64,000 nt of DNA from a bacterium HR37 (GTDB taxonomy: Bacteria; Desulfobacterota_D; UBA1144; Nemesobacterales; CSP1-2): the NCBI GenBank assembly GCA_002898375.1, contig BEIN01000014.1, forward strand, positions 6,712 through 70,711, given 5' to 3'. Shown here in pieces: positions 18,328-61,872 of the stretch. The translations under genes were made by a program, and so were the position numbers. Position 1 is the stretch's first letter; every line of letters begins with the position of its first letter. The notes under the pieces were generated by a model. It saw nothing but the letters and a program-made list of their open reading frames with translations, was not told where the DNA came from and did no database searches.

Positions 18328-19053
18328 TTAAATACGAGCGATCTCATTATTTACCTTTGCAGATGCTTCATCAAACATCTGAATTGCCTTTTGATAGGTT
18401 TCAAATTCCCTAAGGGTTTCTATCATCTTAAACATTTCCATCACTATATCTACATTTGAGGTCTCCAGATATCCCTGCTTTACTAAAGCGTTTGCTTTTA
18501 CCGGGTTATCATTTGTTGAAAATGCCTCTTCTCCTATCTTGGTAAGGTTATCTTTTTTAGGAAAATCAACGACCTGTATGGAGTCTATCTCTACCCCATC
18601 CACAATCACTGTGCCAGCTTCGTCTATTCGTATATCTCTTCCACGGGGTAACTTTATCGGACCATTCCTTCCAAGAACCTTCTTACCATTGTAGTTTGTA
18701 AGAAACCCTTCTCTGTCTATTCTTAGATCCCCTCTTCTGGTGTATAAGTTACCTTCAAGAGCAATAAAGCCACTTCCCTCAAGTGCTATATCGAGTGGAT
18801 TACCTGTGTAGAAGTTGTTTCCATTTGAGAAGTCAATGCTGTAAGATGATATATGGCTCATAACCCTTCCATCTGCTTTATCGCCTTGGGCTGAAACTAG
18901 GTAGTCTTTAAAAGATATACTTGCTTTTCTGTATCCTGTTGTGTTTACATTAGCCAGGTTCTGGGTGATGATCTCCATCTGTTTTTGCTTTAATACAGCT
19001 CCTGAAAGCGCTATGTATATCCCTTTGTACATCTTACTCTGGGTGGTATGCAA
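18328..19053 (-). CDS. flgF: flagellar basal-body rod protein FlgF
   Basis: ORF-track start is TTG at 19053; the true start is probably ATG ~19032 ([12 protein letters not shown]...[13 protein letters not shown]). Confidence 0.85.
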
Positions 19054-19064
19054 AATAGGTGCCA
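19050..19064 (-). promoter_or_regulatory. sigma54 promoter TGGCAC-CTATT-TTGCA (minus strand) upstream of flgF-flgG-flgA-flgH-flgI-flgJ
   Basis: Forward strand reads GCAAAATAGGTGCCA; perfect -24/-12 consensus with N5 spacing. Confidence 0.6.
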
Positions 19065-19159
19065 GTTTAGATTGGCTGTGTATAGGCGTATGTTGGAGTA
19101 TTTATCTGGGGTAACAAAGGGAAAAAATTACTGTTTGAAGCAATTTTTGCCTGGTGCTC

Positions 19160-19528
19160 TTATCTATTAAGATTTAGGATCAGTTCAACCTCCCCTACAG
19201 TCATTCCAAGTTTATCTGCTATCTCCTGGGCATTTAACCCTTCTTCGGAGAGTAAGATAACCTCTTTTCTTCTATCTATTTCCTTTTTTAAACTGGATGT
19301 TACGGATTCAGCTTGATTTATTAACTCCCTTAATACCTCTATTTTCTCGTTTGCTGAGTCTTCCAGAGTCTTTAGGGTCTTAACCTTGTCCTCTATCTTT
19401 TTAAATATTATGTCCGCAATTTCTTTAACCTCTAATAGTTCGGTCTCAAGCAGTTTAATATCATCACTCCTTATGCCTTCTTTTGTTTCTTTTTCTTTGT
19501 TTCTCTTTATAAAGATCTTCTTTGACAT
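19160..19528 (-). CDS. coiled-coil protein with C-terminal HTH (sigma70 region-4-like), putative regulator
   Basis: 122 aa; Lys/Glu-rich helix then LSEEGLNAQEIADKLGMTVGEVELILNL; no family recognised. Confidence 0.3.
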   Translation of the reverse strand: MSKKIFIKRNKEKETKEGIRSDDIKLLETELLEVKEIADIIFKKIEDKVKTLKTLEDSANEKIEVLRELINQAESVTSSLKKEIDRRKEVILLSEEGLNAQEIADKLGMTVGEVELILNLNR

Positions 19529-19756
19529 CTTAGGCTTTAATATCTATCTTCTTTGTTTTTTTATTCTGGTTCCCTTTATCTTTCCTGTTCTTATCCTGTT
19601 TTCCCTGGTGTTCTTTTTCCCTCTGTGTCGGCCTGATAAAGGCTATCCTTTTTGTAGCTTCTACACTCATCTTACCCCAAATTATATCACAAACTCATAA
19701 TAAGCATAAATACTCCAGTTCTGGTTTGCATAGCAGGTTAAATTAAATAGCCATTA

Positions 19757-19772
19757 TGGCACATTTATTGCA
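19757..19772 (+). promoter_or_regulatory. sigma54 promoter TGGCAC-ATTTA-TTGCA upstream of fliK-flgD-flgE
   Basis: Perfect consensus read directly; ends 18 nt before the annotated fliK ATG. Confidence 0.6.
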
Positions 19773-19789
19773 AAAAAAATCTTATAAAT

Positions 19790-21097
19790 ATGCCTGTTAA
19801 TCCCTTTAACTTAATAGGGAAAACATTAGAAGGGCAGCTGGTTAAATTTGCCAGACCAGGTGAGGGTTTTCTAACCCATTATCTGGGAAAAAATGTAAAT
19901 CCAGCGGGAAATAATTTCCCTATGGTTCTAAGTCTGATACTGGGTTCAGAGGATGGCACTTTACCTTTTAAACCTCACTCCAGTGCAGTTGAGAGTGGGA
20001 ATTTGCTTTATGGTATAGAACCTCTATCTGATAGTGATACTGAACCAGGTAATGCAGACCTAAAGGTTGTTAGTGATAAAAACCTATATGATATGGTCGG
20101 TATTATTCTGGCAGTGGTAAAAGATTTGGCTAATTTAATACCGGAGTTTATTTCCGGGAAAGCAGAGAACGGGATTGGTCGGAGTACTGTTCTTAATGCA
20201 TCCTTCTCTAATTCTAAACCTGGTACTCAGGATTCTTTCTACAACCAATTGTATCTGCGTGATTCGGGATACGTGGCTTTTTTAGTAGATGGTAGATCCG
20301 GTGGTACACCAACTGCGGAAGAAAGCAGGGGAGGTGGATACGGTTTTTCTGCATATAAGGATGATTTGCTTCAAAGGATATCGAAAAAGGGTTTTTTCAA
20401 AACCGATCCTATCAGTTTTAATGAGAATCCAGATGATTTTAAAAGCTCCTTTTCTGTTACTGAAAGTGGAGAGGATGTTAAAAACAGAGTGTTTTCTGAG
20501 CCTCTATTAAGGGAGGTTAAGCACCCAGACGTTACCAAGGAAGATAGTTCAAAGCCCGGGCTGGATTACTTAAGAAATGAGCCTGTAGATAGGTTAACTT
20601 CTTTAGATTTTTCAGTTTCTAAGCTGACTTCTTCTGATAATGGTAAACAGGAACCCCTTTTACCCAGTGGGTTACACCATTTCTACTCTGGTTCAAATGG
20701 TAAGGTTGATCTTGGTGATGTTAAAAATTTCTTTTCCGTTGCTAAGAGCGGAAAGGAGTTTATTGTAACCCTCGAGCCCGAGGGGCTTGGAAAGCTAAAT
20801 ATACAACTCAGCATGGATCAAGGTTTTATAAATATAAAGATAAATGTATCAAACGGTGTTGTAAAAGCTTTCATTGAGAACAATATCCACAGCATGGTTG
20901 ATTTGCTTCTTAACGATGGAATAAACATCGGAGGTCTCTCAATTAATATTGGGAACGGTAAAAGGAACTGGGATGAGGGTTATGAGTATAGGGCTTTTAG
21001 AGGGAATATAACCATTCCCGGTGTGGAAAGAGTATATGCATCAGGGACCCAGGGTTTTTATCGTGGTTCCAGTGGGCTTGTAAGTATCTTTGTTTAA
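19790..21097 (+). CDS. fliK: flagellar hook-length control protein
   Basis: 435 aa; C-terminal Flg_hook/T3S4 domain LEPEGLGKLNIQLSMDQGFINIKINVSNGVVKAFIENN; upstream of flgD-flgE. Confidence 0.7.
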   Translation: MPVNPFNLIGKTLEGQLVKFARPGEGFLTHYLGKNVNPAGNNFPMVLSLILGSEDGTLPFKPHSSAVESGNLLYGIEPLSDSDTEPGNADLKVVSDKNLYDMVGIILAVVKDLANLIPEFISGKAENGIGRSTVLNASFSNSKPGTQDSFYNQLYLRDSGYVAFLVDGRSGGTPTAEESRGGGYGFSAYKDDLLQRISKKGFFKTDPISFNENPDDFKSSFSVTESGEDVKNRVFSEPLLREVKHPDVTKEDSSKPGLDYLRNEPVDRLTSLDFSVSKLTSSDNGKQEPLLPSGLHHFYSGSNGKVDLGDVKNFFSVAKSGKEFIVTLEPEGLGKLNIQLSMDQGFINIKINVSNGVVKAFIENNIHSMVDLLLNDGINIGGLSINIGNGKRNWDEGYEYRAFRGNITIPGVERVYASGTQGFYRGSSGLVSIFV

Positions 21098-21788
21098 AAG
21101 GAGGAGTCTTATGGAAATCCCAGGTGTAGATATTAATCCCTCTCAGGTACAGACAAACTCAAAAAAACTATCTCCTTCTGATATAAGCCAGGATGAGTTC
21201 CTAACGCTTCTGATAACCCAGCTTCGTTTTCAGGACCCTCTTAATCCCATAAACAATGCAGAATTTACCTCTCAGCTTGCACAGCTTAGTTCCCTGGAGA
21301 AGTTAAATAACATAGATTCTCAGCTAAGGGATTTACTTATTTACCAGAATTCCCTTCAAAATACGCTTGCTGTAAGCCTTATGGGTAGAGAGGTTGAGGC
21401 TCTGGGAGATGAGGTGTATTTAAAAGATCAAGCTGAGATAAACTACACCCTCTCTCAAAACGCCTCAGTTGTAAAGATTTCCATATACGATCTTAACGGA
21501 AAGCTTGTGAGAGAGGTTGAATTAAAGGGACAGCCCTCTGGAAGCAACACCTATGTGTGGGATGGGAAGAGCTCAACGGGAGAAAAACTTCCTGAGGGGA
21601 GGTATGTGTTTACCGTAAGTGCGTTTGATGCACAGGGGCAGGCTATTGATGTAACTACCACAATAAAAGGTGTTATAACGGGTATAACGTTTGAGGACAA
21701 CATAACTTATCTCATAATAGATGATGCTATAAAGGTTCAACTTGGAGATATAAAAACAATTAAAACAGTAAATGAGGGAGGTGTATAG
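21090..21788 (+). CDS. flgD: flagellar hook capping/assembly protein
   Basis: 232 aa; FLTLLITQLRFQDPLNP FlgD N-terminal motif plus Ig-like C-terminal domain. Confidence 0.85.
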   Translation: MFKRRSLMEIPGVDINPSQVQTNSKKLSPSDISQDEFLTLLITQLRFQDPLNPINNAEFTSQLAQLSSLEKLNNIDSQLRDLLIYQNSLQNTLAVSLMGREVEALGDEVYLKDQAEINYTLSQNASVVKISIYDLNGKLVREVELKGQPSGSNTYVWDGKSSTGEKLPEGRYVFTVSAFDAQGQAIDVTTTIKGVITGITFEDNITYLIIDDAIKVQLGDIKTIKTVNEGGV

Positions 21789-21791
21789 AAG

Positions 21792-23090
21792 ATGTTAACA
21801 TCACTTTACACTGCAGTAAGTGGGCTTAGTGCCAATGGGGTACTTCTGTCCGTTATAAGTGATGATATCGCAAATGTAAACACGGTGGGATTTAAAGGGA
21901 GCAGGGTCTATTTCGGCGATGTGTTAAGCCAGATATTAACCGGGATTGCCGGTTCCTCTCAAATAGGACGTGGGGTTCTGGTAAGCAGGGTATCTCCGTT
22001 GTTTACTCAGGGGTCTTTTGAGACCACAACAAGTGCCCTTGACCTTGCTATAGATGGGGATGGCTTCTTTATAGTTAAGTCAGGTGAAGCTGTGTATTAC
22101 ACACGGGCAGGACAGTTTACCCTGGATAAGGAGGGAAACATAGTAAATCCAGACGGTCTTATCCTTCAGGGGTTTCTTGTGGACTCTTCAGGAAAGATAA
22201 GCGGGGAACTTGGGGATCTAAAGATAGCAACCACTCAGAGTCCGGCTAAGATGACCACAATGGTGGATATAGCGGTAAACCTAAATGCGTCGGAAGAGGT
22301 TCTCTCTGATCCTTTTACACTGGATGGTAACGGAGATAGCGTAATGGATGACCCTGCTAACTATAACAGCTCTACGACTGTTACGGTTTACGATTCTCAG
22401 GGAGGTGCACACGAGATAACACTTTACTTCGTTAAAACAGGGGATAACACTTGGGAAGTTCACTATGTTTATGAAGACCCTGCTAATCCGGGACAGTTGA
22501 TTGAAGCCGGTGTTCAGAACTTGAGTTTTAATACAGATGGTTCTCTTAATGATGATGGTAGCAGCACCCCGATAAGTTTTAATTTCGGTACCGCTGTAAC
22601 CTCACCTCAGGATATAACTTTTAATTATGGAACCGGAACCGGTGAATCTCCTCCCGGTAATGGATTTGATGGTACCACTCAGTTTGCATCGGATTTTGCC
22701 GTTTTAAACCTCAGTCAGGACGGGTACGGAGCTGGCTCTCTAAAAAACATAACCATATCACAGGATGGGGTAATATCCGGGGTGTTTACAAATGGTCAAA
22801 CTAGGATCTTGGGACAGGTTGCCCTTGCAAAGTTTGTCTCTCCCTCAGGACTTTTAAAGATAGGAAGAAACCTCTATGCCGAGTCTTTTGACTCTGGACA
22901 ACCCATTGTAGGGGCTCCGGGTACATCTGGTCTTGGAAGGGTTCTTTCAAATACCCTGGAGCTAAGCAATGTTGATCTTGCAGAAGAGTTTGTAAGGATG
23001 ATCTCAGCACAGAGGGCTTTTCAGGCAAATGCAAGAACTATAACGGTTACCGATGAGCTAACTCAGGAACTGGTTAATTTAAGAAGGTAA
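21792..23090 (+). CDS. flgE: flagellar hook protein
   Basis: 432 aa; MLTSLYTAVSGLSANG...DIANVNTVGFKG and C-terminal SNVDLAEEFVRMISAQRAFQAN. Confidence 0.9.
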   Translation: MLTSLYTAVSGLSANGVLLSVISDDIANVNTVGFKGSRVYFGDVLSQILTGIAGSSQIGRGVLVSRVSPLFTQGSFETTTSALDLAIDGDGFFIVKSGEAVYYTRAGQFTLDKEGNIVNPDGLILQGFLVDSSGKISGELGDLKIATTQSPAKMTTMVDIAVNLNASEEVLSDPFTLDGNGDSVMDDPANYNSSTTVTVYDSQGGAHEITLYFVKTGDNTWEVHYVYEDPANPGQLIEAGVQNLSFNTDGSLNDDGSSTPISFNFGTAVTSPQDITFNYGTGTGESPPGNGFDGTTQFASDFAVLNLSQDGYGAGSLKNITISQDGVISGVFTNGQTRILGQVALAKFVSPSGLLKIGRNLYAESFDSGQPIVGAPGTSGLGRVLSNTLELSNVDLAEEFVRMISAQRAFQANARTITVTDELTQELVNLRR

Positions 23091-23159: not shown

Positions 23160-23186
23160 TAAAGTTTTTCTTTTAAGTTCCGATAA
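23160..23186 (+). promoter_or_regulatory. sigma28 promoter TAAAGTTT-N11-TCCGATAA
   Basis: Near-perfect FliA consensus read directly, ~50 nt upstream of the 23234 ORF heading the REC/HD-GYP/motAB gene string. Confidence 0.6.
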
Positions 23187-23233: not shown

Positions 23234-23452
23234 ATGAGTGTGTTTTTCCCTCCTAAAATCAACGAACTTTCCAAGATATACAACAGGTACTCAAAGGTTA
23301 AATCATCTTTAGAGAGGCAATCTGTAGTTTCAGATAAGGGTCAGGGAGAATCCAGGGTGGATACTGTAGATATATCTTCGGAAGCTAGGAGAAAACTCGT
23401 TCGCAGTCAGATCAAAGGTGAGGTGCTCGATAGAATCCGAAAAGGAGGGTAG
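23234..23452 (+). CDS. small FlgM-like protein (second putative anti-sigma-28 family member)
   Basis: 72 aa; ESRVDTVDISSEARRKL resembles the FlgM core; immediately downstream of a sigma28 promoter. Confidence 0.3.
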   Translation: MSVFFPPKINELSKIYNRYSKVKSSLERQSVVSDKGQGESRVDTVDISSEARRKLVRSQIKGEVLDRIRKGG

Positions 23453-23453
23453 T

Positions 23454-24035
23454 ATGGAGAAAAAGGACTTTAAGATACTTGTTGTGGATGATGACGATAT
23501 GGTTAGAGAGTTTGTTTCCTCAGTCTTAATCAAGCAAGGATACAGTGTGATTTCGGCAAGGGATGGATTTGATGGGCTCAGAATGCTTCTTATGGTTGAG
23601 GATATAAAGCTGGTTATAACGGATCTCAAGATGCCTGGTGCCAGTGGTATGGATATACTTGAGTATACGCAAAAAAACAATCCTGATATTGCGGTCGTAA
23701 TACTTACAGGTTTTGGCACAATCGAGGATGCCCTTGAGGCTGTTACAAAGGGAGCCTTTGACTATCTAACAAAACCCTTTAAGGTTGAGGAAATTGTGTT
23801 TGTTGCTGAGAAGGCTTTTAAACGGGAAATAATAGTGTGTGAAAACAGAGAATTGAAAAGGATTCTAAGGGATACCTATCGTGATATAGGAACGGTAAGG
23901 GATATAATTAACAGCAACGATGCTGGTGTGGTATCCAGGTGGATGGACAGAATGAACAGGTTAAAGGCTATGAATGTTCTTACCGAATCAGAGATAAAGG
24001 TACTAAGGGAAAAGATTGTAAAGACCAATGCATAA
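23454..24035 (+). CDS. response-regulator receiver protein with ~70 aa C-terminal extension
   Basis: ORF track starts at 23418; likely start is ATG 23454 after SD AAGGAGGG (MEKKDFKILVVDDDD...VITDLKMPGASGMDI...LTKPF). Confidence 0.7.
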   Translation: MEKKDFKILVVDDDDMVREFVSSVLIKQGYSVISARDGFDGLRMLLMVEDIKLVITDLKMPGASGMDILEYTQKNNPDIAVVILTGFGTIEDALEAVTKGAFDYLTKPFKVEEIVFVAEKAFKREIIVCENRELKRILRDTYRDIGTVRDIINSNDAGVVSRWMDRMNRLKAMNVLTESEIKVLREKIVKTNA

Positions 24036-25533
24036 CGGAAAGATACTGATAGTGGATGATGATCCCTTTGTAAGGGAATTCCTCTCTGAGATCCTTTCTG
24101 ATAAAGGCAGTTATGAGGTAGATGTTGCAGTAGATGGATTGGAAGGTCTAGAGAAAATAGGCAGACAGGACTACGATGTTGTTTTTACTGATTTATGTAT
24201 GCCCAGGTTAAATGGTTTTGAGTTTTTAAGGGAGGTCAAAAGACTGGAGCCTGTGTTGCCTGTAGTTGTAATCACAGGGTTTTCAACCATAGAAAATGCG
24301 GTAAATGCCATGAGGGAGGGGGCAAGTGATTTTATAGAGAAACCGTTTCAGGTTGATAAGGTAGTTTCATTAGCGGAAAGATTGGTAAATCAGAAGAGAC
24401 TTTTAGGAGGGCTTACCTCAAAGAAAAGGTATCGTCTTTCCCTGGAGACGCTAAATGCCCAGTTATTTAAAACGCTTCAGGAGATCTCAACCCTGCATAC
24501 TGTAAGTACAGAGCTTGATAACCTATACGATAACTCTGATATATACCGCAGGGTTGTGGAGATGGCTTTAAAGTTACTTCCAGTGCGAGAGGCTTTATTT
24601 GGAATCATTGATGGAAATCGTTTGAAGATAAAGAGCTCCATAGGAGTACCCAATTTTAGGGATGAGATTGAGTTTAGGGGTTCGTACATTGAAAGAGTTG
24701 TTAAGAGCAGAACCCATCTTGTTGTAAAGCCAGGTGAGTTTAATCCTGTTGACAACTCCAGGATTACCTCACCCATCCTGTGTATTCCTATCAATATAAA
24801 TGGTGAGACAATCGGTATATTAAACCTTTCTAATAAACCCGATGGCTCATCCTTTACCGATGATGAGATCCACCTTGCTCTAAATTTTGTTCAAAAAGTT
24901 GGCCTTCGATTGGAAAACAACGCTTTATATGAAACCGTCTATAGCAATCTCATTAACACCTTAAAATCGCTTGTTGCTATAATCGAAGCACGAGATCCCT
25001 ATACCAAACAGCATTCGGAAAGAGTTACTCTCTATTCTTTGGAAATAGCCGAGATGATTGGATTAAGCAACGAAGAGAAAGAGGTCTTAAAATTTGGTGG
25101 TTACCTTCATGATATAGGAAAGATTGGGGTAAGAGACACAATACTTCTTAAACCCGGAAGACTAACACCTGAGGAGATGGCAGAGGTTAGGTTGCATCCG
25201 TTAATAGGTGATCGAATAGTACAACCTGTGCAATTTCTTGAGAAGGAAAGGGAATTGATTCTGTATCATCATGAAAGAATAGATGGAAGGGGTTATCCTT
25301 ACGGATTAAAGGGAGAGGAGATCCCGTTTGTGGTGCGCATACTAAGTGTTGCTGATGCATACGATGCCATGACCTCCTCTAGGGCTTATAGGCCTGCCAA
25401 ACCTCATGAGGTTGCAATTGAGGAGATAAAATACGGTGTAAATACGCAATTTGACAAAGAGGTTGTAAAGGCTTTCTTAAACACGGAGACAGGAAAAGGA
25501 AGAAAGAAAAAGAGAAAAATCTCTGTGGATTAA
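24028..25533 (+). CDS. REC-GAF-HD-GYP response regulator, predicted c-di-GMP phosphodiesterase
   Basis: N-terminal receiver (ILIVDDDPF...VFTDLCMPRLNG), central GAF-like region, HD-GYP motifs YLHDIGKIGV and HHERIDGRGYP. Confidence 0.8.
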   Translation: MHNGKILIVDDDPFVREFLSEILSDKGSYEVDVAVDGLEGLEKIGRQDYDVVFTDLCMPRLNGFEFLREVKRLEPVLPVVVITGFSTIENAVNAMREGASDFIEKPFQVDKVVSLAERLVNQKRLLGGLTSKKRYRLSLETLNAQLFKTLQEISTLHTVSTELDNLYDNSDIYRRVVEMALKLLPVREALFGIIDGNRLKIKSSIGVPNFRDEIEFRGSYIERVVKSRTHLVVKPGEFNPVDNSRITSPILCIPININGETIGILNLSNKPDGSSFTDDEIHLALNFVQKVGLRLENNALYETVYSNLINTLKSLVAIIEARDPYTKQHSERVTLYSLEIAEMIGLSNEEKEVLKFGGYLHDIGKIGVRDTILLKPGRLTPEEMAEVRLHPLIGDRIVQPVQFLEKERELILYHHERIDGRGYPYGLKGEEIPFVVRILSVADAYDAMTSSRAYRPAKPHEVAIEEIKYGVNTQFDKEVVKAFLNTETGKGRKKKRKISVD

Positions 25534-31129: not shown

Positions 31130-31156
31130 TTATCGGTTTTTTTTTGATAAACTTTA
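31130..31156 (-). promoter_or_regulatory. sigma28 promoter TAAAGTTT-N11-ACCGATAA for fliC, with ~100-nt leader
   Basis: Read from the reverse complement. The leader carries AAGGGAGG and the SD AAGGAGG. Confidence 0.7.
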
Positions 31157-39135: not shown

Positions 39136-39152
39136 TGTTTTTTTACCCCTTC

Positions 39153-45067: not shown

Positions 45068-45082
45068 GGCATGATAAATGCA
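45068..45082 (+). promoter_or_regulatory. sigma54 promoter GGCATG-ATAAA-TGCA upstream of the fliL...flhG operon
   Basis: GG-N10-GC spacing with one mismatch in the -12 element; SD AGGAGA follows before the fliL GTG/ATG. Confidence 0.5.
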
Positions 45083-46565: not shown

Positions 46566-46566
46566 T

Positions 46567-48868: not shown

Positions 48869-48873
48869 CTAAC

Positions 48874-49908: not shown

Positions 49909-51932
49909 GGGAGATTAAGCTAAGGAAGGAAAACATTGTGGCTATAGGGGTTGTTATCATCCTGGGAATGATGATAATTCCTATCCCCCCCTTCCTGCTT
50001 GATATCCTATTTTCTCTCTCCATATCGCTTTCAATTGTTATCTTGGTAACAAGTATATACATAAAAAAACCTCTGGATTTCTCTGTTTTTCCTTCACTCC
50101 TTTTGATCGTCACGCTGTACAGGCTCTCATTAAACATTGCCTCAACTAGGTTGATACTTCTTAAGGGTAGCGAGGGTATAGATGCAGCAGGTCAGGTGAT
50201 AAAGTCTTTTGGTAGTTTTGTTGTGGGGGGAAACTATGTTGTTGGTTTTACGGTCTTTCTTATATTGATCGTAATAAACTTTGTCGTTATCACAAAAGGT
50301 GCGGGAAGGATAGCTGAGGTGGCTGCACGTTTTATACTGGATTCGATGCCGGGTAAGCAAATGGCAATAGATGCTGATCTTAATGCAGGTCTTATAAATG
50401 AAGAGGAGGCAAGAAGAAGAAGGGAACTTATCTCTCAGGAAGCCGATTTCTATGGGGCAATGGATGGGGCAAGTAAGTTTGTAAGAGGGGATGCAATAGC
50501 AGGGTTGATAATTACCGGAATAAACATAATTGTTGGCTTTATTATAGGAACGCTACAGCAGGGTATGCCCGTTTCGGAAGCAGCAAAGACATATACCATC
50601 CTAACTATAGGTGATAGCCTAATCTCACAGATACCGGCCCTACTTGTTTCAACCGCTGCAGGTATAGTTGTGAGCCGAGCCGGTGTTGAGACAGATTTTG
50701 GGGAAGAAATAACAAAACAGGTTTTGGTAAACCCAAAATCTCTGGTCACCGCTTCAGGGATAATACTTGTTCTTGGTCTTGTTCCAGGAATGCCGCTTCT
50801 GCCATTTTTTATATTTTCCCTTGCATCAGGGATTATAGCCTATATGGTTTCAAGGGTTCCCCTGGAGGAAAAGGAGGAAGAAGAAATTAAAGAGCCTCCT
50901 CAGGAGAGCCATATCGATACGCTTCTTGAGATAGAACCTCTTACGTTTGAAATCGGCTACGGGCTTATTCCTCTCGTAGAAAGTGAAACCTCTGGTCTTT
51001 TAAGCAAAATAAAGTCAATGAGAAGGCAGATAGCCTCTGAGCTGGGCTTTGTGGTGTCTCCTATACATATAAAAGACAATCTCCAGCTTAGACCCCATGA
51101 GTATGTTCTTCTTCTAAGGGGTATGGAAGTTGCTCGTGGGGAGGTAATGATGGGATACTGGCTTGCTGTACCTTCAGAGAAAGCTGAAAGAATAGATGGT
51201 ATACCAACAAAGGAGCCAGCCTTTGGACTTCCAGCTTTCTGGATAAGCGAGAAGGACGTTGAAAGTGCAAAGGATAAAGGATACATGGTGGTTGATACTG
51301 CTACGGTGATTATAACTCACCTTACGGAGGTAATAAAGAGCCATGCCTGGGAACTTTTAACAAGGACAGAGGTACAGAGTTTGCTGGATAATGTAGCTAA
51401 AAGATATCCAAAGCTGGTTGAGGAGCTAATACCAACACAGCTAACACTTGGAGGGGTTCAGAGGGTTCTGCAAAACCTTCTTAAGGAAAGGGTTCCCATA
51501 AAGGATATTGTCACTATTCTCGAAACCCTTCTTGACTATGCTCCTTCAACAAAGGATACAGAGTTGTTAACCGAGTATGTAAGACAGGCGCTATCAAGAG
51601 TCATTACAAAACAGTATTTATCCCCTGATGGGTTGCTTTATGTTATGACACTGGATCCTGCTTTTGAAAGCGCAATCCTTGATTCAATGGAGGATGGTGG
51701 AGCTTTGGATCCAGGTGTTGTAAACAGCCTGATTAAAGCTGTGGAGAAGGCCTTTAGCAGTGCAGATGCTGCTAAACTTCAGTATCCAATAGTTCTTTGT
51801 TCTTCTCGAGTAAGGAGGTTTCTTAGAAAGATTACGGAGCGTTTCCTGCCTTCAGTTATTGTGCTTTCAAGCGCTGAGATTCTACCCTCAGTAAAACCTT
51901 ATATAGTAGGGGTGATAAGGTATGAAAATTAG
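49905..51932 (+). CDS. flhA: flagellar export apparatus protein
   Basis: 675 aa FHIPEP family. Confidence 0.9.
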   Translation: MREIKLRKENIVAIGVVIILGMMIIPIPPFLLDILFSLSISLSIVILVTSIYIKKPLDFSVFPSLLLIVTLYRLSLNIASTRLILLKGSEGIDAAGQVIKSFGSFVVGGNYVVGFTVFLILIVINFVVITKGAGRIAEVAARFILDSMPGKQMAIDADLNAGLINEEEARRRRELISQEADFYGAMDGASKFVRGDAIAGLIITGINIIVGFIIGTLQQGMPVSEAAKTYTILTIGDSLISQIPALLVSTAAGIVVSRAGVETDFGEEITKQVLVNPKSLVTASGIILVLGLVPGMPLLPFFIFSLASGIIAYMVSRVPLEEKEEEEIKEPPQESHIDTLLEIEPLTFEIGYGLIPLVESETSGLLSKIKSMRRQIASELGFVVSPIHIKDNLQLRPHEYVLLLRGMEVARGEVMMGYWLAVPSEKAERIDGIPTKEPAFGLPAFWISEKDVESAKDKGYMVVDTATVIITHLTEVIKSHAWELLTRTEVQSLLDNVAKRYPKLVEELIPTQLTLGGVQRVLQNLLKERVPIKDIVTILETLLDYAPSTKDTELLTEYVRQALSRVITKQYLSPDGLLYVMTLDPAFESAILDSMEDGGALDPGVVNSLIKAVEKAFSSADAAKLQYPIVLCSSRVRRFLRKITERFLPSVIVLSSAEILPSVKPYIVGVIRYEN

Positions 51933-53004
51933 AAGATTTAAAGCAAAGACCTTTGCCGAAGCCCTAGAGCTTGTAAGAAGAGAGCTAAGTGAGGATGCAG
52001 TTATCCTCTCAACTGAAGAGAAGAAGGGGCTAAATTCATTTGTGGAGGTAACAGCTGCTGTGGATTACGATGTGGAAAGCAGGATTAGTATTGAGGAAAA
52101 AAACAGTAGGGAATTTGAGTCATCTTTGGTAAAGCAGTATGCAATGCTTGCTGAGGGGATAAAAGATGAGGTAAGGAAGATAAGAGATTTAATAAAAAGC
52201 ATGAAAAGCAGTGGTTTTGAAATATCCCTACCTGCCAAAAAAAGAGCCATATTGAGTTTTCTTAGGGAAAGGGCCATAAAAAAGGATTTTGCCTTGCGTA
52301 TCTGTGAGAACGTAGGGGATCTGGAGCAAATACCCCAATTAATTGCCAGTGATATAGAGGTAAGGACAAAGGTGTTTGACAAAAGGGCTATAATGCTTGT
52401 TGGTCCTACGGGTGTGGGTAAAACCACTACCGTTGCTAAACTCTGTGCACATGCAATCAGGGAGGGTAAAAGGGCTGCTATTATAAGCCTTGACACCTAT
52501 AGAATTGGTGCAACAGAGCAGATCAGGATATATGCAAGGATAATGGGAATACCCCTATCGATTGTATCAAATGTTAATGAGTTTATTGAGAGTCTTTGCA
52601 ATTTTATTCAGACAAGGGATGTTATCTTTATAGATACTACTGGAAGAAGTCCAAGCAATGAAGGCTACGTTAACGAACTTTACGAAGTCCTTGAGAGCGT
52701 AAACAGCGGAAAAAAAACAATTAGTCCTTTCTCCTTAGAGCTTCACTTACTGATAAGTGCAAACTACGATGACGAGTTTGTAATGGAGTCTTACAGGTTT
52801 TACAGAAAGCTACCTGTAGATTGTATAGCCTTTACGAAGGTGGATGAGGCTGTAAGGTTTGGATCTCTTTACAACCTCATTATGACTTACCGCAAGCCAG
52901 TTGCCTATATAACTACCGGACAGAATGTTCCCAGAGATATTGAGTTTCCTGCAAGAGATGATCTTGCAAATCTGATACTTAGAAAGGGGTTTGTCAAATG
53001 CTAA
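51922..53004 (+). CDS. flhF: flagellar biosynthesis SRP-type GTPase
   Basis: MLVGPTGVGKTTTVAKL; SRP54-type G domain. Confidence 0.85.
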   Translation: MKIRRFKAKTFAEALELVRRELSEDAVILSTEEKKGLNSFVEVTAAVDYDVESRISIEEKNSREFESSLVKQYAMLAEGIKDEVRKIRDLIKSMKSSGFEISLPAKKRAILSFLRERAIKKDFALRICENVGDLEQIPQLIASDIEVRTKVFDKRAIMLVGPTGVGKTTTVAKLCAHAIREGKRAAIISLDTYRIGATEQIRIYARIMGIPLSIVSNVNEFIESLCNFIQTRDVIFIDTTGRSPSNEGYVNELYEVLESVNSGKKTISPFSLELHLLISANYDDEFVMESYRFYRKLPVDCIAFTKVDEAVRFGSLYNLIMTYRKPVAYITTGQNVPRDIEFPARDDLANLILRKGFVKC

Positions 53005-53825
53005 AGGAGAGTTCTAAAGGCTTTATAAAGACAATTGCGGTGACAAGTGGAAAAGGTGGTGTGGGTAAGACCAATATAGTGGCCAACCTTGCTATTCCCC
53101 TGAGAAAGCTGGGTAAAGAGGTGCTTATACTCGATGCTGATCTGGGCTTGAGCAACATAGATATACTTTTTCAACTAACCCCCAGATACAATCTACAGCA
53201 CGTTATTAATGGGGAGAAAAGACTTGAGGATATAGTGGTTGAGGGACCCTATGGAATAAAGGTGATTCCTGCAAGTTCTGGGATACAGGAGCTAACAGCT
53301 CTAAGTGAGTTTCAGAGACTAAGGATACTTGAGGCATTTGAATCGTTTAGGCACAAGATAGATGTACTTTTAATTGATACCGCTGCCGGTATATCCGAGA
53401 ATGTGGCCTTCTTCTGTATAACTGCCCAGGAGATAATAGTGGTTGTATCACCTGAACCAACTTCAATTACAGATGCTTATGCCTTGATCAAGGTGCTTTT
53501 TACCAGGTATCAGGAAAAGGATTTCCATATCCTGGTAAACCTGGTCAAGAATTCAAGAGAGGCAATGGAGGTATTTAAGCGTCTCTCTCTTGTGGCTGAC
53601 CGCTTTCTTAACTTATCCCTGAATTATCTGGGCTACATTCCGGTGGATGAATCTATCCAAAAGGCTGTACGGGCACAGAGAGCTTTTGTAGAGATGTATC
53701 CTGAGTGTCCTGCTTCTAAAAAGCTCTATGAAATTGCCCCCAAGCTTTTGGAGCGGGAGAAAAAGATTAAGGGGGCCTTACAGTTTTTTATCAAGGATCT
53801 GTTATCCCTATCTACAGATACGTAA
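52998..53825 (+). CDS. flhG: MinD-like ATPase FlhG/FleN (flagellar number regulator)
   Basis: IAVTSGKGGVGKTNIVANLA deviant Walker A. Confidence 0.8.
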   Translation: MLKESSKGFIKTIAVTSGKGGVGKTNIVANLAIPLRKLGKEVLILDADLGLSNIDILFQLTPRYNLQHVINGEKRLEDIVVEGPYGIKVIPASSGIQELTALSEFQRLRILEAFESFRHKIDVLLIDTAAGISENVAFFCITAQEIIVVVSPEPTSITDAYALIKVLFTRYQEKDFHILVNLVKNSREAMEVFKRLSLVADRFLNLSLNYLGYIPVDESIQKAVRAQRAFVEMYPECPASKKLYEIAPKLLEREKKIKGALQFFIKDLLSLSTDT

Positions 53826-53915: not shown

Positions 53916-53931
53916 TGGCATGATCCTTGCA
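53916..53931 (+). promoter_or_regulatory. sigma54 promoter TGGCAT-GATCC-TTGCA upstream of fliA and the che genes
   Basis: Perfect consensus read directly. The fliA ATG at 53952 is only ~20 nt away; GTG at ~53973 preceded by the SD-like GAGGGGAAAG is a plausible true start. Confidence 0.55.
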
Positions 53932-53951: not shown

Positions 53952-54719
53952 ATGTTGAGGGGAAAGACAGATGTGAAGCCTTTAGCCAGTTTGGACCTAG
54001 GGTATAAGAGGGAATTGGGTGAGGAGGAGAAGGAAAAGATAATAAGGGATTTTCTCCCTTTTATAAAGTACACAGCCTATAGGCTTGCATGGAGACTCCC
54101 ACCCCAACTTTCGGTAGAGGATCTTATAAGTGCCGGGATTGTAGGGCTTTTGGAGGCTCTTCAAAGGTATAAAGAGGGAGTGGCAAGGCTCAGTACCTTT
54201 GTAGAATCAAGGATAAGGGGAGCAATGCTTGATGAGCTTAGGTCTCAGAGTTGGATACCAAAGTCTATGAAAGAAAAAATCAGTGCGGTTAAGAAAACCT
54301 ATCTGGAGCTTGAATCAAAACTTGGCCGTCCACCAGAAGCAGAAGAGGTTGCTAAAAAGCTTAATATTTCGGTTGATGAGTACTATAAGATACTTCAGAG
54401 TGCAAATATGGAAGTGGTACTGAATTTTGAAAGTTTTAAGGAAAAAAACAGAAACGAAGAAAGCGTGGATCTGCTTGAGTATATTTGCGATCCTGATGCT
54501 AAAACCCCTCTTTCCGTATTAGAGGAGAGTCAGGTTAGGGAGGCAATTGCAAAAGTTATAGAAGAACTTCCTGAAAAAGAGAAGCTTGTTCTTTCACTTT
54601 ACTACTGGGAAGAGATGACCATGAAGGAGATAGGGAAGATTTTAAATATTACGGAGAGCAGGGTTTCGCAGCTACACAATCAGGCACTTTTAAGACTTAA
54701 AGCAAAACTCAATTTGTAG
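53952..54719 (+). CDS. fliA: RNA polymerase sigma factor sigma28
   Basis: 255 aa; sigma70 region 2 and region 4 HTH (MTMKEIGKILNITESRVSQLHNQALLRLK). Confidence 0.85.
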   Translation: MLRGKTDVKPLASLDLGYKRELGEEEKEKIIRDFLPFIKYTAYRLAWRLPPQLSVEDLISAGIVGLLEALQRYKEGVARLSTFVESRIRGAMLDELRSQSWIPKSMKEKISAVKKTYLELESKLGRPPEAEEVAKKLNISVDEYYKILQSANMEVVLNFESFKEKNRNEESVDLLEYICDPDAKTPLSVLEESQVREAIAKVIEELPEKEKLVLSLYYWEEMTMKEIGKILNITESRVSQLHNQALLRLKAKLNL

Positions 54720-57745: not shown

Positions 57746-59413
57746 ATGTCCGGTGAGATGGAGGAAGTGGTAACAGAGTTTATACTGGAGTCAAAAGAAT
57801 CGTTAGATAAGCTGGACTCTCTCTTTGTTGAATTTGAGGAGAAGGGATACGATAAAGCTATAGTCAATGAGATTTTCAGGATAGTCCATACTATTAAGGG
57901 TGCAGCTGGTTTTCTTGGATTTAAATCCATAGTGGATATATCTCACGGGGCAGAAAATATCTTAAAAAAGCTAAGGGATGGTGAGATCCCGCCTACAGAT
58001 AGGCTGATTGATGTACTCCTTAAAAGCACCGATAAACTTAGGGTTCTTATTAACCACATTGAAACAGGGAATAGTTTTAACGAGGATGTTGGTGAGTTGG
58101 TAAAAGAGCTTGAGGATTCCCTTAAGGAAGCACAATCAAAAGGGCAGAAGATGGTTCGGTCAGAATCTGCTCTGGAAGCCGAAAATCAGGTGCCGATAGA
58201 TTATGAGAAAGCGGTTTTTGAGAGAAGAGAGAGAGTCCAGACACTAAGGGTTGATGTGGAGAGGCTAAATGAGGTAATGGATCTTACGGGGGAGGCAGTT
58301 TTAATAAGAAACAGGCTTTTAAATATTGCAGGTTACTTTGAGAGAAAGTTTGCAGACGATCCGTATGTAAAGGGTTTCCTTGAAGCGGTCTCATCTCTTA
58401 ACCTTGTAACCTCTGATATGCAGATTGCTGTTATGAAAATGAGGATGCAGCCAATAAGCAGGGTTTTTAACAAATTCCCCCGCCTTGTAAGGGATATATC
58501 TAAATCACTCGGGAAAGAGGTTGAACTTAGGATTTCAGGAGAAAACACAGAAGTTGATAAATCGGTTATTGAGGAGATAGATGACCCCCTTGTTCATCTT
58601 ATGCGAAACGCAATAGACCATGGCATAGAAACCCCTGAGGAAAGAAGGGCAAAGGGTAAACATGAAAAAGGTATTATTTCCATAAATGCCTTTCAAAGGG
58701 GAAAACAGATTATTATAGAGATCTCGGATGATGGTAGAGGACTGGATGTGGAGAGGATAAAGGGAAAGGCAATCGAAAAGGGAATTATAACCGAGGATGA
58801 GGCACAAAGGATGTCGGAGGATCTGGCTATAAACCTTATCTTTACGCCAGGCTTTTCTACGGTTGATGTTTCTACCGAGTTTAGCGGACGTGGTGTTGGA
58901 ATGGATGTTGTTAAAACAGCCGTCTCTAAGCTAAATGGGTATATAGAGGTTTTTTCGAGAAAGGATAAGGGGACAACATTTAGAATAAGCATTCCCCTTA
59001 CCCTTGCAATAATTCAGGCCATAATAGTGCGGTCTATGGGGGTTCAGTATGCTATTCCTCTAAGCTCGGTTGAGGGGCTCTTAAAGTTGGGTTCCAGCGA
59101 TGTAAGAAAAGTATCAGGAAAGAGAATGCTTTGCGTACGTGAGAAAACCCTTCCGCTTTTTGACCTCTCAGCTCTACTGGGTTTTGGGTGTGGTGAGGGA
59201 ATACAATGTGAATACGGTGTTGTTATCGCGGTAGGGGAAAGACGGTTTTGTATTTCTGTGGATGAGCTCCTTGGACTTGAGGAGATTGTGGTTAAACCAA
59301 TTACTGGCTTGGATGTATCATCTTCCTACGTTGTCGGAGCAACAATAACTGGAGATGGAAGTGTTGTGCTTATTCTTGACCCATCGGGAATTGCAAGGGG
59401 TATTTTTGGATGA
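57746..59413 (+). CDS. cheA: chemotaxis histidine kinase
   Basis: 555 aa; Hpt (HTIKGAAGFLGF), dimerisation and HATPase domains (N box DHGIE, G1 DDGRGLD, G2 GRGVGMD), C-terminal CheW-like domain. Confidence 0.9.
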   Translation: MSGEMEEVVTEFILESKESLDKLDSLFVEFEEKGYDKAIVNEIFRIVHTIKGAAGFLGFKSIVDISHGAENILKKLRDGEIPPTDRLIDVLLKSTDKLRVLINHIETGNSFNEDVGELVKELEDSLKEAQSKGQKMVRSESALEAENQVPIDYEKAVFERRERVQTLRVDVERLNEVMDLTGEAVLIRNRLLNIAGYFERKFADDPYVKGFLEAVSSLNLVTSDMQIAVMKMRMQPISRVFNKFPRLVRDISKSLGKEVELRISGENTEVDKSVIEEIDDPLVHLMRNAIDHGIETPEERRAKGKHEKGIISINAFQRGKQIIIEISDDGRGLDVERIKGKAIEKGIITEDEAQRMSEDLAINLIFTPGFSTVDVSTEFSGRGVGMDVVKTAVSKLNGYIEVFSRKDKGTTFRISIPLTLAIIQAIIVRSMGVQYAIPLSSVEGLLKLGSSDVRKVSGKRMLCVREKTLPLFDLSALLGFGCGEGIQCEYGVVIAVGERRFCISVDELLGLEEIVVKPITGLDVSSSYVVGATITGDGSVVLILDPSGIARGIFG

Positions 59414-60648
59414 GTGCAATATCAAAGGAGGAAATCATGGAGCAGTATATTGGATTTTATCTCGACCAAAATGAGTATATGATTCCTGTATTAAATGTAC
59501 GGGAGATTATAAATATGCCCCCTATAACAAGGATTCCCCTGGCTCCTGCCTATATCGAAGGGGTTACAAACTTGAGAGGAGTTGTGGTTCCTTTGGTTAA
59601 TCTCAAAAAGCTTATGGGATTGAAGGGGATGGAAAAGAATGAGGCGGTAGGTTATGAATTGGGTAATAAGGTTATCATAATAACTCATGGAGGCATGCTT
59701 TTTGGTGTGGTTGTAGATAAGGTAAGCGGTATAATAAGTGTGGAGGAATCAAGTATTGAAGCAACAGAGAGTGTTTTCCACAGCTCTTTAGAGCAAGCTG
59801 AGGGTATAGTTAAACTTAAAGACCGGGTTGCTGTTTTGCTTGATACAAAGAGGTTGCTTCCCGAAGGAGAGCTGGAGGTGTTTGAGGATCTTCTGGTTTC
59901 TTTTAAGGAAAGAGAAGATGGGAAGGTTGAGTTAACCAAAAAAGTTCAGACGATGGGTGGAGAAATTACGGTTAAGGAGCTTAAGGATGCAAGGGATTTC
60001 TTTGAAAAAAGGAAAGCGGACTCTGGTGATCCAAGATATATGGTTCTTGATGATATAGTGGATTTTATAAATGCCCTTGCTGAATGTGACTATGATAGAG
60101 CGGATAGGGTTATTCAGAACATGATAAAGAAGGGACAGGATGAACTTTTTAGTGAGATAGGGAAAATAACAAGGAAACTTCATGATACTATTAAGAGCTT
60201 TAAACAGGCTATTGATCCAAAGATAAAGGAAGTGGCGATGAGAGAGATACCTAGTACAATCGAGTCACTTGAGTTTGTTATTGAGAAATCAGAAGAAGCT
60301 GCAAATAAAACAATGAGCATAGTTGAGAAGTATATACTGGGTATGGATGATCTTGATACCCATATAAAGAGGCTTAGCGGACCGGAAGTATCGGTAGAGT
60401 ACCTAAAGAACTTTAAAAATAACCTGGAGGATGACCTGATTGAAGTGCTTACAACTCAGTCCTTTCAGGATATAACGGGACAGCTTATAAAGAAGGTAAT
60501 AAAGCTTATAGGGGATATAGAAGAGGAACTTGTAAGGCTTATAAAGAACTTTGGTGAAAGGGTGGAGGTGGGCTATAGAACTGAGGCAACTTCCCAGAAG
60601 ATAACCCAGGCCGATGTTGATGAGCTTTTAAGAGAGTTTGGGTTCTAA
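59410..60648 (+). CDS. CheW-like domain fused to a CheZ-like CheY-P phosphatase domain
   Basis: N-terminal ~150 aa CheW fold (YIGFYLDQNEYMIPVLNVREII...GVTNLRGVVVPLVNL). C-terminal region has the CheZ catalytic motif TQSFQDITGQLIKKVIKLI and a CheZ-like C-terminal CheY-docking helix ADVDELLREFGF. Probable start at the internal ATG ~59437 after AGGAGG. Confidence 0.7.
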   Translation: MSAISKEEIMEQYIGFYLDQNEYMIPVLNVREIINMPPITRIPLAPAYIEGVTNLRGVVVPLVNLKKLMGLKGMEKNEAVGYELGNKVIIITHGGMLFGVVVDKVSGIISVEESSIEATESVFHSSLEQAEGIVKLKDRVAVLLDTKRLLPEGELEVFEDLLVSFKEREDGKVELTKKVQTMGGEITVKELKDARDFFEKRKADSGDPRYMVLDDIVDFINALAECDYDRADRVIQNMIKKGQDELFSEIGKITRKLHDTIKSFKQAIDPKIKEVAMREIPSTIESLEFVIEKSEEAANKTMSIVEKYILGMDDLDTHIKRLSGPEVSVEYLKNFKNNLEDDLIEVLTTQSFQDITGQLIKKVIKLIGDIEEELVRLIKNFGERVEVGYRTEATSQKITQADVDELLREFGF

Positions 60649-60653
60649 AGAAG

Positions 60654-61688
60654 ATGATAAGGGTTCTTATAGTTGATGACTCAGCATTTATGAGAAATGC
60701 CCTAAAGACCATGCTTTCTTCCGATCCCGAGATCGAGATTGTAGGTGTTGCACGGGATGGAGTAGAAGCAATAGAGAAGGTTATGAGTTTAAACCCTGAT
60801 ATAGTGACAATGGATGTAGAAATGCCCAGAATGGATGGTCTTACAGCACTAAAACGTATTATGGAGATAAAACCCGTTCCGGTAATTATCGTAAGTTCTC
60901 TGACGTCTGAGGGAGCAAAGGTTACACTTGATGCCCTTGATATCGGTGCTGTGGATTTCATCCCCAAAAACCTATCCGAGCTTTCAGTAGATATTGTGAA
61001 GTTAAAAGAATTGCTTATTGAGAAGGTGAAAAAAGTTGCCGGGAGAAAAAATATAAGAAAAAGGGTAAGTCCCTTTCCTTATAAATCAAACGAGGTTAAC
61101 AGGGCTCACCTAACCTCAAGTAGAAAAATAGGGGTCGTTGCTATAGGAACCTCAACAGGAGGTCCAAGGGCACTTCAGGAGATCATCCCAAAACTGCCAA
61201 AGAACTTTCCGGTTCCAATTGTAATTGCCCAGCATATGCCTGCAACCTTTACCGGACCCTTTGCCGAAAGACTAAACCAGATAAGTCAGATTACAGTTAA
61301 AGAAGCTGAGGATGGAGAGGTCTTGAAACAAGGGGTTGCTTTTATCGCACCGGGAAGGGGGCATATGAGACTGCGAAAAAGGGGTATAGAAACCGTTATC
61401 TCCATAACAAGTGATGATGAGTATATATACCGCCCATCGGTTGATCTTCTTATGACCTCAGTTGCAGAGTGTTTTCCGGGAAAGGCCCTTGGTGTGATAC
61501 TTACCGGTATGGGAAATGACGGTCTTAAGGGTATTTCTGCCTTAAGAGAAAGTGGGGGAAAGGTGATTGCACAGAATGAGGAGACGTGTGTGGTATATGG
61601 AATGCCAAAGGCAGTGGTTGAGGCAGGATTGGCGGATAAGGTTTTACCTCTGGAAGATATAGCTGGTGAGATAGTGAGTTCTCTCTAA
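60654..61688 (+). CDS. cheB: chemotaxis methylesterase/deamidase
   Basis: REC (ILIVDDSAFMR...VTMDVEMPRMDG) + CheB catalytic domain (VAIGTSTGGPRAL...). Confidence 0.9.
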   Translation: MIRVLIVDDSAFMRNALKTMLSSDPEIEIVGVARDGVEAIEKVMSLNPDIVTMDVEMPRMDGLTALKRIMEIKPVPVIIVSSLTSEGAKVTLDALDIGAVDFIPKNLSELSVDIVKLKELLIEKVKKVAGRKNIRKRVSPFPYKSNEVNRAHLTSSRKIGVVAIGTSTGGPRALQEIIPKLPKNFPVPIVIAQHMPATFTGPFAERLNQISQITVKEAEDGEVLKQGVAFIAPGRGHMRLRKRGIETVISITSDDEYIYRPSVDLLMTSVAECFPGKALGVILTGMGNDGLKGISALRESGGKVIAQNEETCVVYGMPKAVVEAGLADKVLPLEDIAGEIVSSL

Positions 61689-61694
61689 TTACCC

Positions 61695-61721
61695 TAAAGT
61701 TTCCCGTTATAAAACCGATAA
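61695..61721 (+). promoter_or_regulatory. sigma28 promoter TAAAGTTT-N11-ACCGATAA downstream of cheB
   Basis: Read directly: CCTAAAGTTTCCCGTTATAAAACCGATAAT. Confidence 0.5.
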
Positions 61722-61856
61722 TATAAAGGGAAAACCTTATGGATATGGTGTGTACTCTGATGGTTTCCTCGATCTCAAGCAGGAAAAAAATGCCTTATCT
61801 GTTAAGGTTTTTCCTTCTTCATCCCCAGATTTATGCGTTTTTGATACCAGTTAATG

Positions 61857-61872
61857 TGGCACCGTTTTTGCA
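61857..61872 (+). promoter_or_regulatory. sigma54 promoter TGGCAC-CGTTT-TTGCA upstream of the MCP gene
   Basis: Perfect consensus; followed by SD GGAGG and the ATG at 61909. Confidence 0.6.

Follow-up and report, generated by a model that had tools for sequence, protein, structure and literature searches.

The flagellar gene cluster and its regulators

The window analysed here, a 64-kb stretch of contig BEIN01000014.1, holds a complete flagellar and chemotaxis gene cluster (Table 1). This report concerns the promoters of that cluster, above all a set of seven candidate sigma-54 (-24/-12) promoters, four of which closely precede start codons that have no Shine–Dalgarno (SD) sequence. Genes were assigned from a list of open reading frames (ORFs) together with Pfam and NCBIfam profile scans of the window proteins. 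The homologues of these proteins are named as Nitrospirota, Nitrospiraceae, or Thermodesulfovibrionales metagenome-assembled genomes, and on the strength of these names the window is placed in the Nitrospirota (Thermodesulfovibrionales-like).

A first-pass annotation of the sequence had proposed two activators of the NtrC family and one PAS kinase, which the profile scans confirmed: both activators contain a Sigma54_activat domain, the Walker A sequence GESGTGKE, and a GAFTGA loop of the kind that contacts sigma-54 (at residue 218 in one and 228 in the other). The activator at 43491–44912 starts with a canonical Response_reg domain (E = 1e-29) that includes LVLTDLVMP; its best NCBIfam matches, AtoC and NtrC, are both under the cut-off. 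The activator at 39153–40484 reaches 385 bits with the FlgR model, which is under the 750-bit cut-off. A third regulator (24028–25533) was considered as a sigma-54 activator and discarded, as its domains are REC-GAF-HD-GYP instead.

Candidate sigma-54 promoters of seven operons

Both strands of the window were searched for sigma-54 motifs, and the number of matches expected by chance was taken from dinucleotide-preserving shuffles. All six -24/-12 elements listed in the first-pass annotation were recovered at coordinates within 1 nucleotide (nt) of those given there, but the set was incomplete: a seventh element at 43455–43469 on the minus strand had been missed. Three exact matches to TGGCAC-N5-TTGC were found, namely at the flgF and fliK sites and at the site of the gene for a methyl-accepting chemotaxis protein (MCP), where 0.04 were expected; none of 100 shuffles reached three. 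The pattern GGCAY-N6-TGC occurred seven times (1.73 expected; 0 of 100 shuffles with seven). The bare GG-N10-GC pattern was not enriched in the window (254 observed, 270 expected), so the signal resides in the extended consensus only. Compared with TGGCAC-N5-TTGCW, with GG and GC 10 nt apart, three of the seven sites are exact, two have one mismatch, and two have two, while GGCAY-N6-TGC is retained in all of them. A position weight matrix built from the seven sites gave them scores between 22.5 and 26.1, which is circular for the sites themselves and informative only for the gap to the runner-up in the window (13.5). Each of the seven is intergenic and points into a flagellar or chemotaxis operon whose first gene follows directly. 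No Rfam match was obtained in the window.

Some candidates were tried and rejected. A match with one mismatch at 18602–18616 (minus strand) is located inside flgF with TTGT at -12 and was taken as chance, and the runner-up of the matrix scan (61831–61852, minus strand) was not accepted as a site. A division into two promoter flavours, GGCATG for early operons and TGGCAC for flgF, fliK, and the MCP gene, was considered as a class marker and dropped, as the split is not conserved in relatives.

Table 1. Promoters, transcription units, and selected genes of the flagellar cluster (positions in the window; spacers are counted from the GC of the -12 element to the start codon)
Feature	Position	Strand	Genes or remarks
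Candidate sigma-54 promoter TGGCACCTATTTTGC	19050–19064	-	flgF-flgG-flgA-flgH-flgI-flgJ; GC 17 nt before ATG 19032, no SD
Candidate sigma-54 promoter TGGCACATTTATTGC	19757–19771	+	fliK-flgD-flgE; 18 nt before ATG 19790, no SD
Candidate sigma-54 promoter AGGCATGAAAATTGC	39122–39136	-	flgB-flgC-fliE-fliF-fliG-fliH-fliI-fliJ; 16 nt before ATG 39105, no SD
Candidate sigma-54 promoter TGGCATGTTTGTTGC	43455–43469	-	TPR–PAS-kinase–activator operon; 18 nt before ATG 43436, no SD
Candidate sigma-54 promoter AGGCATGATAAATGC	45067–45081	+	fliL-fliM-fliN-fliO-fliP-fliQ-fliR-flhB-flhA-flhF-flhG; 48 nt before ATG 45130, SD present
Candidate sigma-54 promoter TGGCATGATCCTTGC	53916–53930	+	fliA-che operon; 42 nt before probable GTG 53973, SD GAGGGG
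Candidate sigma-54 promoter TGGCACCGTTTTTGC	61857–61871	+	MCP gene; 37 nt before ATG 61909, SD GGAGG
Sigma-70-type promoter, TTGACA-17-TAAAAT	44924–44952	-	first activator; -10 ends 11 nt before ATG, no SD
Sigma-28-type promoter, TAAAG-N15-CCGATAA	14107–14133	-	before flgM-flgN-flgK-flgL
Sigma-28-type promoter	23160–23186	+	before small FlgM-like ORF, response regulator, REC-GAF-HD-GYP, motAB
Sigma-28-type promoter	31130–31156	-	before flagellin-flaG-fliD-fliS
Sigma-28-type promoter	61695–61721	+	136 nt before the candidate sigma-54 promoter of the MCP gene
flgF-G-A-H-I-J, then flgM-N-K-L	19032 down to 10726	-	
fliK-flgD-flgE	19790–23090	+	
flgB-C-fliE-F-G-H-I-J	39105 down to about 33189	-	
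TPR protein, PAS histidine kinase, sigma-54 activator	43436 down to 39153	-	
fliL-M-N-O-P-Q-R-flhB-flhA-flhF-flhG	45130–53825	+	
fliA, HEAT-repeat protein, cheR, cheY, cheA, cheW-like, cheB			followed by the MCP gene
Response regulator, REC-GAF-HD-GYP protein, motAB			
Flagellin-flaG-fliD-fliS			further unit
First sigma-54 activator	43491–44912	-	candidate master regulator; REC-AAA+-HTH, GAFTGA at residue 218
Second sigma-54 activator	39153–40484	-	FlrC/FleR/FlgR/FlbD-like; REC-AAA+-HTH, GAFTGA
Cytoplasmic PAS histidine kinase	40474–41643	-	FlrB/FleS-like
TPR protein, 597 amino acids	41643–43436	-	signal-peptide-like N-terminus; first gene of the kinase/activator operon
flgF	18328–19032	-	ATG 19032 confirmed; FlgF profile aligned from residue 1
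flgB	38740–39105	-	ATG 39105 confirmed; TIGR01396, residues 3–120 to positions 3–131
fliK	19790–21097	+	hook-length control, Flg_hook domain; start inferred only
fliA (sigma-28)	53973–54719	+	start reassigned to GTG 53973
flhF and flhG	51922–53825	+	regulators of polar placement and flagellar number
flgM	13786–14070	-	anti-sigma-28

Conservation of the promoters in relatives

Loci of relatives were obtained from a genome scan with FlgC, a metagenome scan with FlgF, and exact-protein look-ups of TPR, FlgF, and FliA homologues. The genome scan returned mostly Firmicutes and other phyla, with L001 as the only locus of use; the metagenome scan yielded one relative at 51% identity besides three near-identical strains. 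The loci L092 and L097 are part of genomes of 3.58 Mb and 3.25 Mb, respectively.

In a MAFFT alignment of the region upstream of flgF from eight lineages, the -24/-12 element was the sole conserved non-coding block. Seven lineages including the window (FlgF identity 56%–68%, the highest in L090) keep the promoter 12–17 nt from the ATG, with spacers of 17 nt in the window, 15 in L090, 14 in L091, L092, and L093, 16 in L097, and 12 in L098–100. Similar distances were found for the other operons. The gene for the TPR protein (42%–59% identity) is preceded by a spacer of 18 nt in the window and of 14 nt in L085, L087, and L089; in L001, 12 nt were counted, provided that translation does not start at an ATG further downstream. 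The flgB spacers are 16 nt (window), 18 (L087), 14 (L001), and 26 (L089), those of fliK 18 (window), 22 (L090), and 12 (L001), and a gene for a lytic transglycosylase (SLT) in L090 has a spacer of 17 nt. The fliL orthologue of L087 and L096 is separated from its element by 55 nt. Outside the Nitrospirota, sigma-54-like promoters of flgB (Calditrichia, Deferribacteres, Desulfosarcina) have leaders of about 30–45 nt. The element upstream of fliA is present in L094, L095, and L096; no sigma-54 site was found upstream of fliA in L093.

That the flagellar operons are headed by sigma-54 promoters, as the first-pass annotation had it, thus agrees with the enrichment, position, and orientation of the elements and with the conserved block at orthologous positions in other Nitrospirota. 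As judged from these features of the sequence, all seven sites are very probably functional sigma-54 promoters of the flagellar hierarchy.

Spacer length, start codons, and Shine–Dalgarno sequences

Distances of 16–18 nt between promoter and start codon had been noted before for flgF and fliK, which holds (17 and 18 nt), and 13 nt for flgB, which does not (16 nt). The TPR gene (18 nt) belongs with these three, as opposed to fliL and the MCP gene with 48 and 37 nt. Leaderless translation or mis-set start codons had been offered as explanations; the N-termini, compared with profiles and orthologues, decide for flgF, flgB, and the TPR gene in favour of leaders that are very short, whereas the mis-set start applies to fliA. 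FlgF aligns with the NCBIfam FlgF models from residue 1 and FlgB with TIGR01396 from residue 3. The orthologues start at the same codons, with a conserved N-terminus in FlgF, MG-x-x-FKILE in FlgB, and hydrophobic signal peptides in the TPR proteins. The anti-SD duplex energies upstream of flgF, fliK, flgB, and the TPR gene range from -2.4 to +1.4 kcal/mol. Most internal genes fall between -5 and -14 kcal/mol, and the values of fliL, flagellin, and the MCP gene between -8.5 and -11.4 kcal/mol. Because of the N-terminal alignments and the lack of anti-SD complementarity, the starts of flgF, flgB, and the TPR gene are taken to be correct and SD-less; the short leader of fliK probably belongs to the same class. 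All four window genes with a short spacer start with ATG, as do 18 of the 19 short-spacer cases across the loci. Over all loci the spacers are bimodal, with one group of 12–22 nt, mostly SD-less, and another of 26–72 nt with an SD.

For fliA, the GC is followed by an ATG after 21 nt (53952), which has no SD, and by a GTG after 42 nt (53973), which is preceded by GAGGGG and had already been favoured in the first-pass annotation. The closest relative with DNA, L094 (FliA 79% identical), begins at the homologous GTG, which opens VKPLARPD (VKPLASLD in the window); an AAGGAG SD precedes it, an in-frame TAA lies five codons upstream, and the sigma-54 site TGGCACAGCTTTTGC is located 43 nt before it. 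FliA homologues are mostly about 245 amino acids (aa) long. The window FliA thus most likely begins at GTG 53973 behind an ordinary leader, which places fliA outside the short-leader class.

Public gene calls were found to run through the sigma-54 promoters. FlgF is called with 260 aa instead of 235 (P0070, L090 9791–10573), the TPR protein with 603 instead of 593 aa (P0003, L087 10001–11812), and the window FliA with 255 instead of 248 aa (from 53952). It seems, then, that the starts of SD-less first genes are systematically miscalled in Nitrospirota.

Sigma-70-type and sigma-28-type promoters

The putative promoter of the first activator gene matches the sigma-70 consensus at 11 of 12 positions. 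In relatives, the corresponding gene is preceded by TTGACA-17-TATAGA-6-ATG (L087), TTGACA-17-TATAGT-6-ATG (L089), and TTGACT-17-TACAAT-7-ATG (L001). With a -10 hexamer, 6–7 nt, and the ATG, these candidate promoters have the textbook layout of leaderless sigma-70 transcription. The distance from promoter to ATG is about 3–4 nt longer in the window than in the relatives for both promoter types (sigma-70, 11 nt compared with 6–7 nt; sigma-54, 16–18 nt compared with 12–14 nt).

The sigma-28-type motif TAAAG-N15-CCGATAA has five exact matches in the window, where 0.45 were expected. Four of them precede flagellar or chemotaxis units (Table 1). The fifth, TAAAGTCATTTGAAGTAACCCCGATAA (47083–47109, minus strand), is antisense within fliO and could be an antisense promoter or the single chance match expected. 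The tandem arrangement of a sigma-28-type and a sigma-54 promoter upstream of the MCP gene suggests dual-tier control of this one chemoreceptor. Directly after the site at 23160–23186, an ORF of 72 aa (23234–23452, plus strand) was identified whose C-terminal segment, VDTVDISSEARRKL, is reminiscent of FlgM. It has no NCBIfam match; as the leading gene of the response-regulator/HD-GYP/motAB operon, it may encode a further anti-sigma-like protein besides FlgM. The REC-GAF-HD-GYP protein of this operon (24028–25533, plus strand), a predicted cyclic di-GMP (c-di-GMP) phosphodiesterase, is encoded between the response regulator and motAB and is predicted to tie c-di-GMP turnover to the motor genes.

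Proposed hierarchy and translation of the first cistrons

Taken together, the promoters and regulators point to a sigma-70, sigma-54, sigma-28 flagellar hierarchy in which several first cistrons are translated from near-leaderless mRNA, a reading that we consider probable as a whole. The sigma-70 promoter would drive the response-regulator-type activator (43491–44912). The seven sigma-54 promoters would then drive the TPR–PAS-kinase–second activator operon, fliL to flhG, fliA-che, flgB to fliJ, flgF to flgJ, fliK-flgD-flgE, and the MCP gene. FliA, kept in check by FlgM, would in turn drive flagellin, flgMNKL, motAB, and, once more, the MCP gene. Individual activators may be assigned to individual promoters by analogy only. 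A shared inverted repeat or dyad that could serve as an activator site in at least three of the seven promoter regions (-260 to +120) was not found, and a division into class II and class III promoters can therefore not be assigned.

Transcription from nifH-type promoters starts 12–14 nt after the GC. The differential RNA sequencing of C. jejuni placed the end of the sigma-54 motif 8–13 nt upstream of the transcription start site (PMC3847290). With a start about 11–16 nt after the GC, the short-spacer transcripts of the window would begin 1–7 nt before the ATG; in relatives with spacers of 12–14 nt, the start would coincide with the A of the ATG or lie within 3 nt of it (leader of 0–3 nt). The first cistrons would then be read as leaderless or near-leaderless mRNA by direct, AUG-dependent loading of ribosomes without SD pairing, and the downstream cistrons would use their ordinary SDs. 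The transcripts of fliL, fliA (from GTG 53973), and the MCP gene would have ordinary SD-containing leaders of about 25–40 nt. From the classic leaderless sigma-70 layout in the same lineage we infer an established mode of expression there in which initiation is leaderless or nearly so, and the sigma-54 promoters may have been drawn up to the start codons for the same reason. Whether the sigma-54 holoenzyme routinely starts at, or within a few nt of, the start codons of flagellar regulatory, rod, and hook genes, which would yield enhancer-dependent leaderless mRNAs, appears evenly balanced from the sequence data.

Several observations weigh against near-leaderless translation or against the hierarchy behind it. 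Leaderless commonly means a 5' untranslated region of at most 5 nt (PMC12754779), and the window spacers of 16–18 nt with a canonical transcription start would imply leaders of 3–7 nt, partly beyond that limit. In E. coli, extra 5' nucleotides lower leaderless translation. The trait is not universal: in L084 (FlgF 51% identical) a leader of about 58 nt with an SD precedes a GTG start, and the 26-nt flgB spacer of L089 carries an SD. Even some short spacers of relatives (14–18 nt) contain SD-like sequences, namely AAGGAG in L087 flgB (14362–14379), AGGAGG in L001 flgB (about 9619–9632), and GGGAG in L097 flgF (9985–10000). A sigma-54 transcript would either begin downstream of these or carry them at its very 5' end, and read-through transcripts may therefore also contribute there. 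The start of fliK was taken from the ORF structure alone, the N-terminus of FliK being unconserved. Finally, rpoN is absent from the 64-kb window, and the failed search for a common activator site belongs here as well.

These SD-like sequences also favour another explanation, in which the sigma-54 sites are genuine, yet most translation of the first cistrons takes place on longer read-through or upstream-promoter RNA, the short-leader RNA serving chiefly the SD-bearing downstream cistrons. Read-through would be physically easy, as only about 50 nt separate flgB from the activator gene before it, and about 55 nt the TPR gene from that of the first activator. However, the spacers of the window and of most relatives have no SD, so that a longer transcript would be no aid to translation; flgF is preceded by an unconserved intergenic region of at least 127 nt without any other conserved element, and read-through alone leaves the conserved, tight spacing of 12–18 nt unexplained. 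We regard this explanation as unlikely. It is still less probable, and in our view very doubtful, that the start codons behind the short spacers are generally mis-set and the true starts lie downstream behind normal leaders. Such an error did occur at fliA, where the GTG with its SD replaces ATG 53952, and the unproven start of fliK leaves room for another. For FlgF and FlgB, on the other hand, the curated profiles align from residues 1–3, and orthologues in up to seven lineages share the start codon and have a conserved N-terminus; the next in-frame methionine of FlgF (residue 19) would remove the conserved GIYIALSGA segment, and the TPR proteins would forfeit their signal peptides.

The elements might also be chance matches or sigma-54 binding sites that are not promoters, and E. 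coli is known to contain intragenic sigma-54 sites that are non-productive. The real, leaderless promoters could instead be AT-rich hexamers just downstream that resemble a sigma-70 -10 element: a perfect TATAAT is located 8 nt before the ATG of the TPR gene and CATAAT 11 nt before that of flgB. The hexamers have no -35 partner and, in contrast to the -24/-12 block, are unconserved in relatives. Chance is ruled out by the enrichment statistics, and two dedicated activators are encoded beside the sites. We regard this group of explanations as highly improbable. Near-leaderless expression from sigma-54 promoters is retained as the preferred reading.

Comparison with known flagellar systems and leaderless mRNAs

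The first-pass annotation had likened the cluster to the sigma-54 cascades of Vibrio and Campylobacter, and the two activators, the PAS kinase, FlhF/FlhG, FliA, FlgM, and the sigma-70 and sigma-28 sites complete such a hierarchy. Polar flagellar programmes of this kind are known from Vibrio, Pseudomonas, and Campylobacter (PMC7064773, PMC6504787). In common with the four-tier FlrA/FleQ hierarchy of Vibrio cholerae and Pseudomonas aeruginosa, in which sigma-54 with FlrBC/FleSR and then FliA/FlgM follow the master activator, the window has a pair of sigma-54 activators, of which one is partnered by a cytoplasmic PAS kinase; putative sigma-54 promoters before the operons for the kinase and activator, the export apparatus, the rod, and the hook; the order flhA-flhF-flhG-fliA-che; and sigma-28-type promoters before flagellin, flgMN, and motAB. 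The differences concern the master activator, which has a true receiver domain with an acceptor aspartate instead of the FleQ-type domain, the secreted TPR protein leading the kinase/activator operon, the separate sigma-54 promoter of fliA, and the single flagellin with a sigma-28 site only. Furthermore, four of the window promoters abut SD-less start codons, and the host is read as a member of the Nitrospirota, not of the Gammaproteobacteria.

With the FlgSR system of Campylobacter and Helicobacter, the window shares a sigma-54 rod and hook regulon under a cytoplasmic kinase and an NtrC-type regulator, as well as FlhF/FlhG and FliA/FlgM. Unlike the window, Campylobacter is not known to have a master activator, and the window kinase is set apart by its PAS domain. 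The mapped sigma-54 transcripts of C. jejuni are not among its leaderless mRNAs, all of which are sigma-70-driven (PMC3847290).

The lack of an SD, the ATG start, and the fixed short distance between promoter and start codon are also features of known leaderless mRNAs (Actinobacteria, Deinococcus, archaea, and sporadic cases in C. jejuni and H. pylori). In contrast to these, the window promoters are of the -24/-12 sigma-54 type, and the predicted leaders measure 3–7 nt instead of 0. The leaderless transcripts described in the literature searched have sigma-70-type or archaeal promoters only, and no description of leaderless or near-leaderless mRNAs driven by sigma-54 (RpoN) was found there. 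Sigma-54 promoters classically go together with long, regulated leaders. Actinobacteria and Deinococcus-Thermus, in which leaderless mRNAs are abundant, are reported to lack sigma-54. The cascade itself is of a known kind, and it is the conserved -24/-12 promoter beside an SD-less AUG that is without counterpart in the literature searched.

The cluster extends the programme of FlhF/FlhG, two-component system, and sigma-54 to the Nitrospirota, with a master activator that would be phosphorylatable and a conserved secreted TPR partner. If the proposed translation mode is correct, leaderless (70S-type, SD-independent) initiation would be a standard mode of expression in Nitrospirota, and the first cistron of each sigma-54 operon would be translated by another route than the later ones. 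Stoichiometry or timing in the hierarchy could be set in this way. The cluster would also offer a natural system for studying the start position of sigma-54 transcription, the translation of very short leaders, and the calling of gene starts in Nitrospirota.

Further genes of the cluster

The TPR protein of about 600 aa with its signal peptide is always encoded first in the PAS-kinase/activator operon (window, L085, L087, L089, and L001) and may act as an envelope-side partner or checkpoint sensor of the flagellar two-component system. An uncharacterised DUF6115/DUF2802 protein of 116–126 aa with an HTH/sigma-70-region-4-like C-terminus is encoded directly upstream of flgF, without an SD (window 19160–19528, minus strand; L090 9293–9643; L091 9213–9569; L092 9349–9711; L097 9445–9825; L098 9156–9512). 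L093 has a DUF6115/SH3_3 protein of 327 aa at this position instead.

Another FliK-like protein, of 417 aa and with a Flg_hook domain (31164–32683, plus strand), is encoded by an SD-less gene and followed by a protein of 89 aa that resembles the C-terminal domain of FlhB; the pair is kept in relatives (L087 20808–21812, L092 1577–2685). Between cheA and cheB, the window encodes a protein of about 400 aa (59410–60648, plus strand). Its counterparts in relatives (L095 14719–15945, L096 15479–16696, L098 5311–6501) have Pfam domains of both CheW and CheZ, which points to a fusion of the two.

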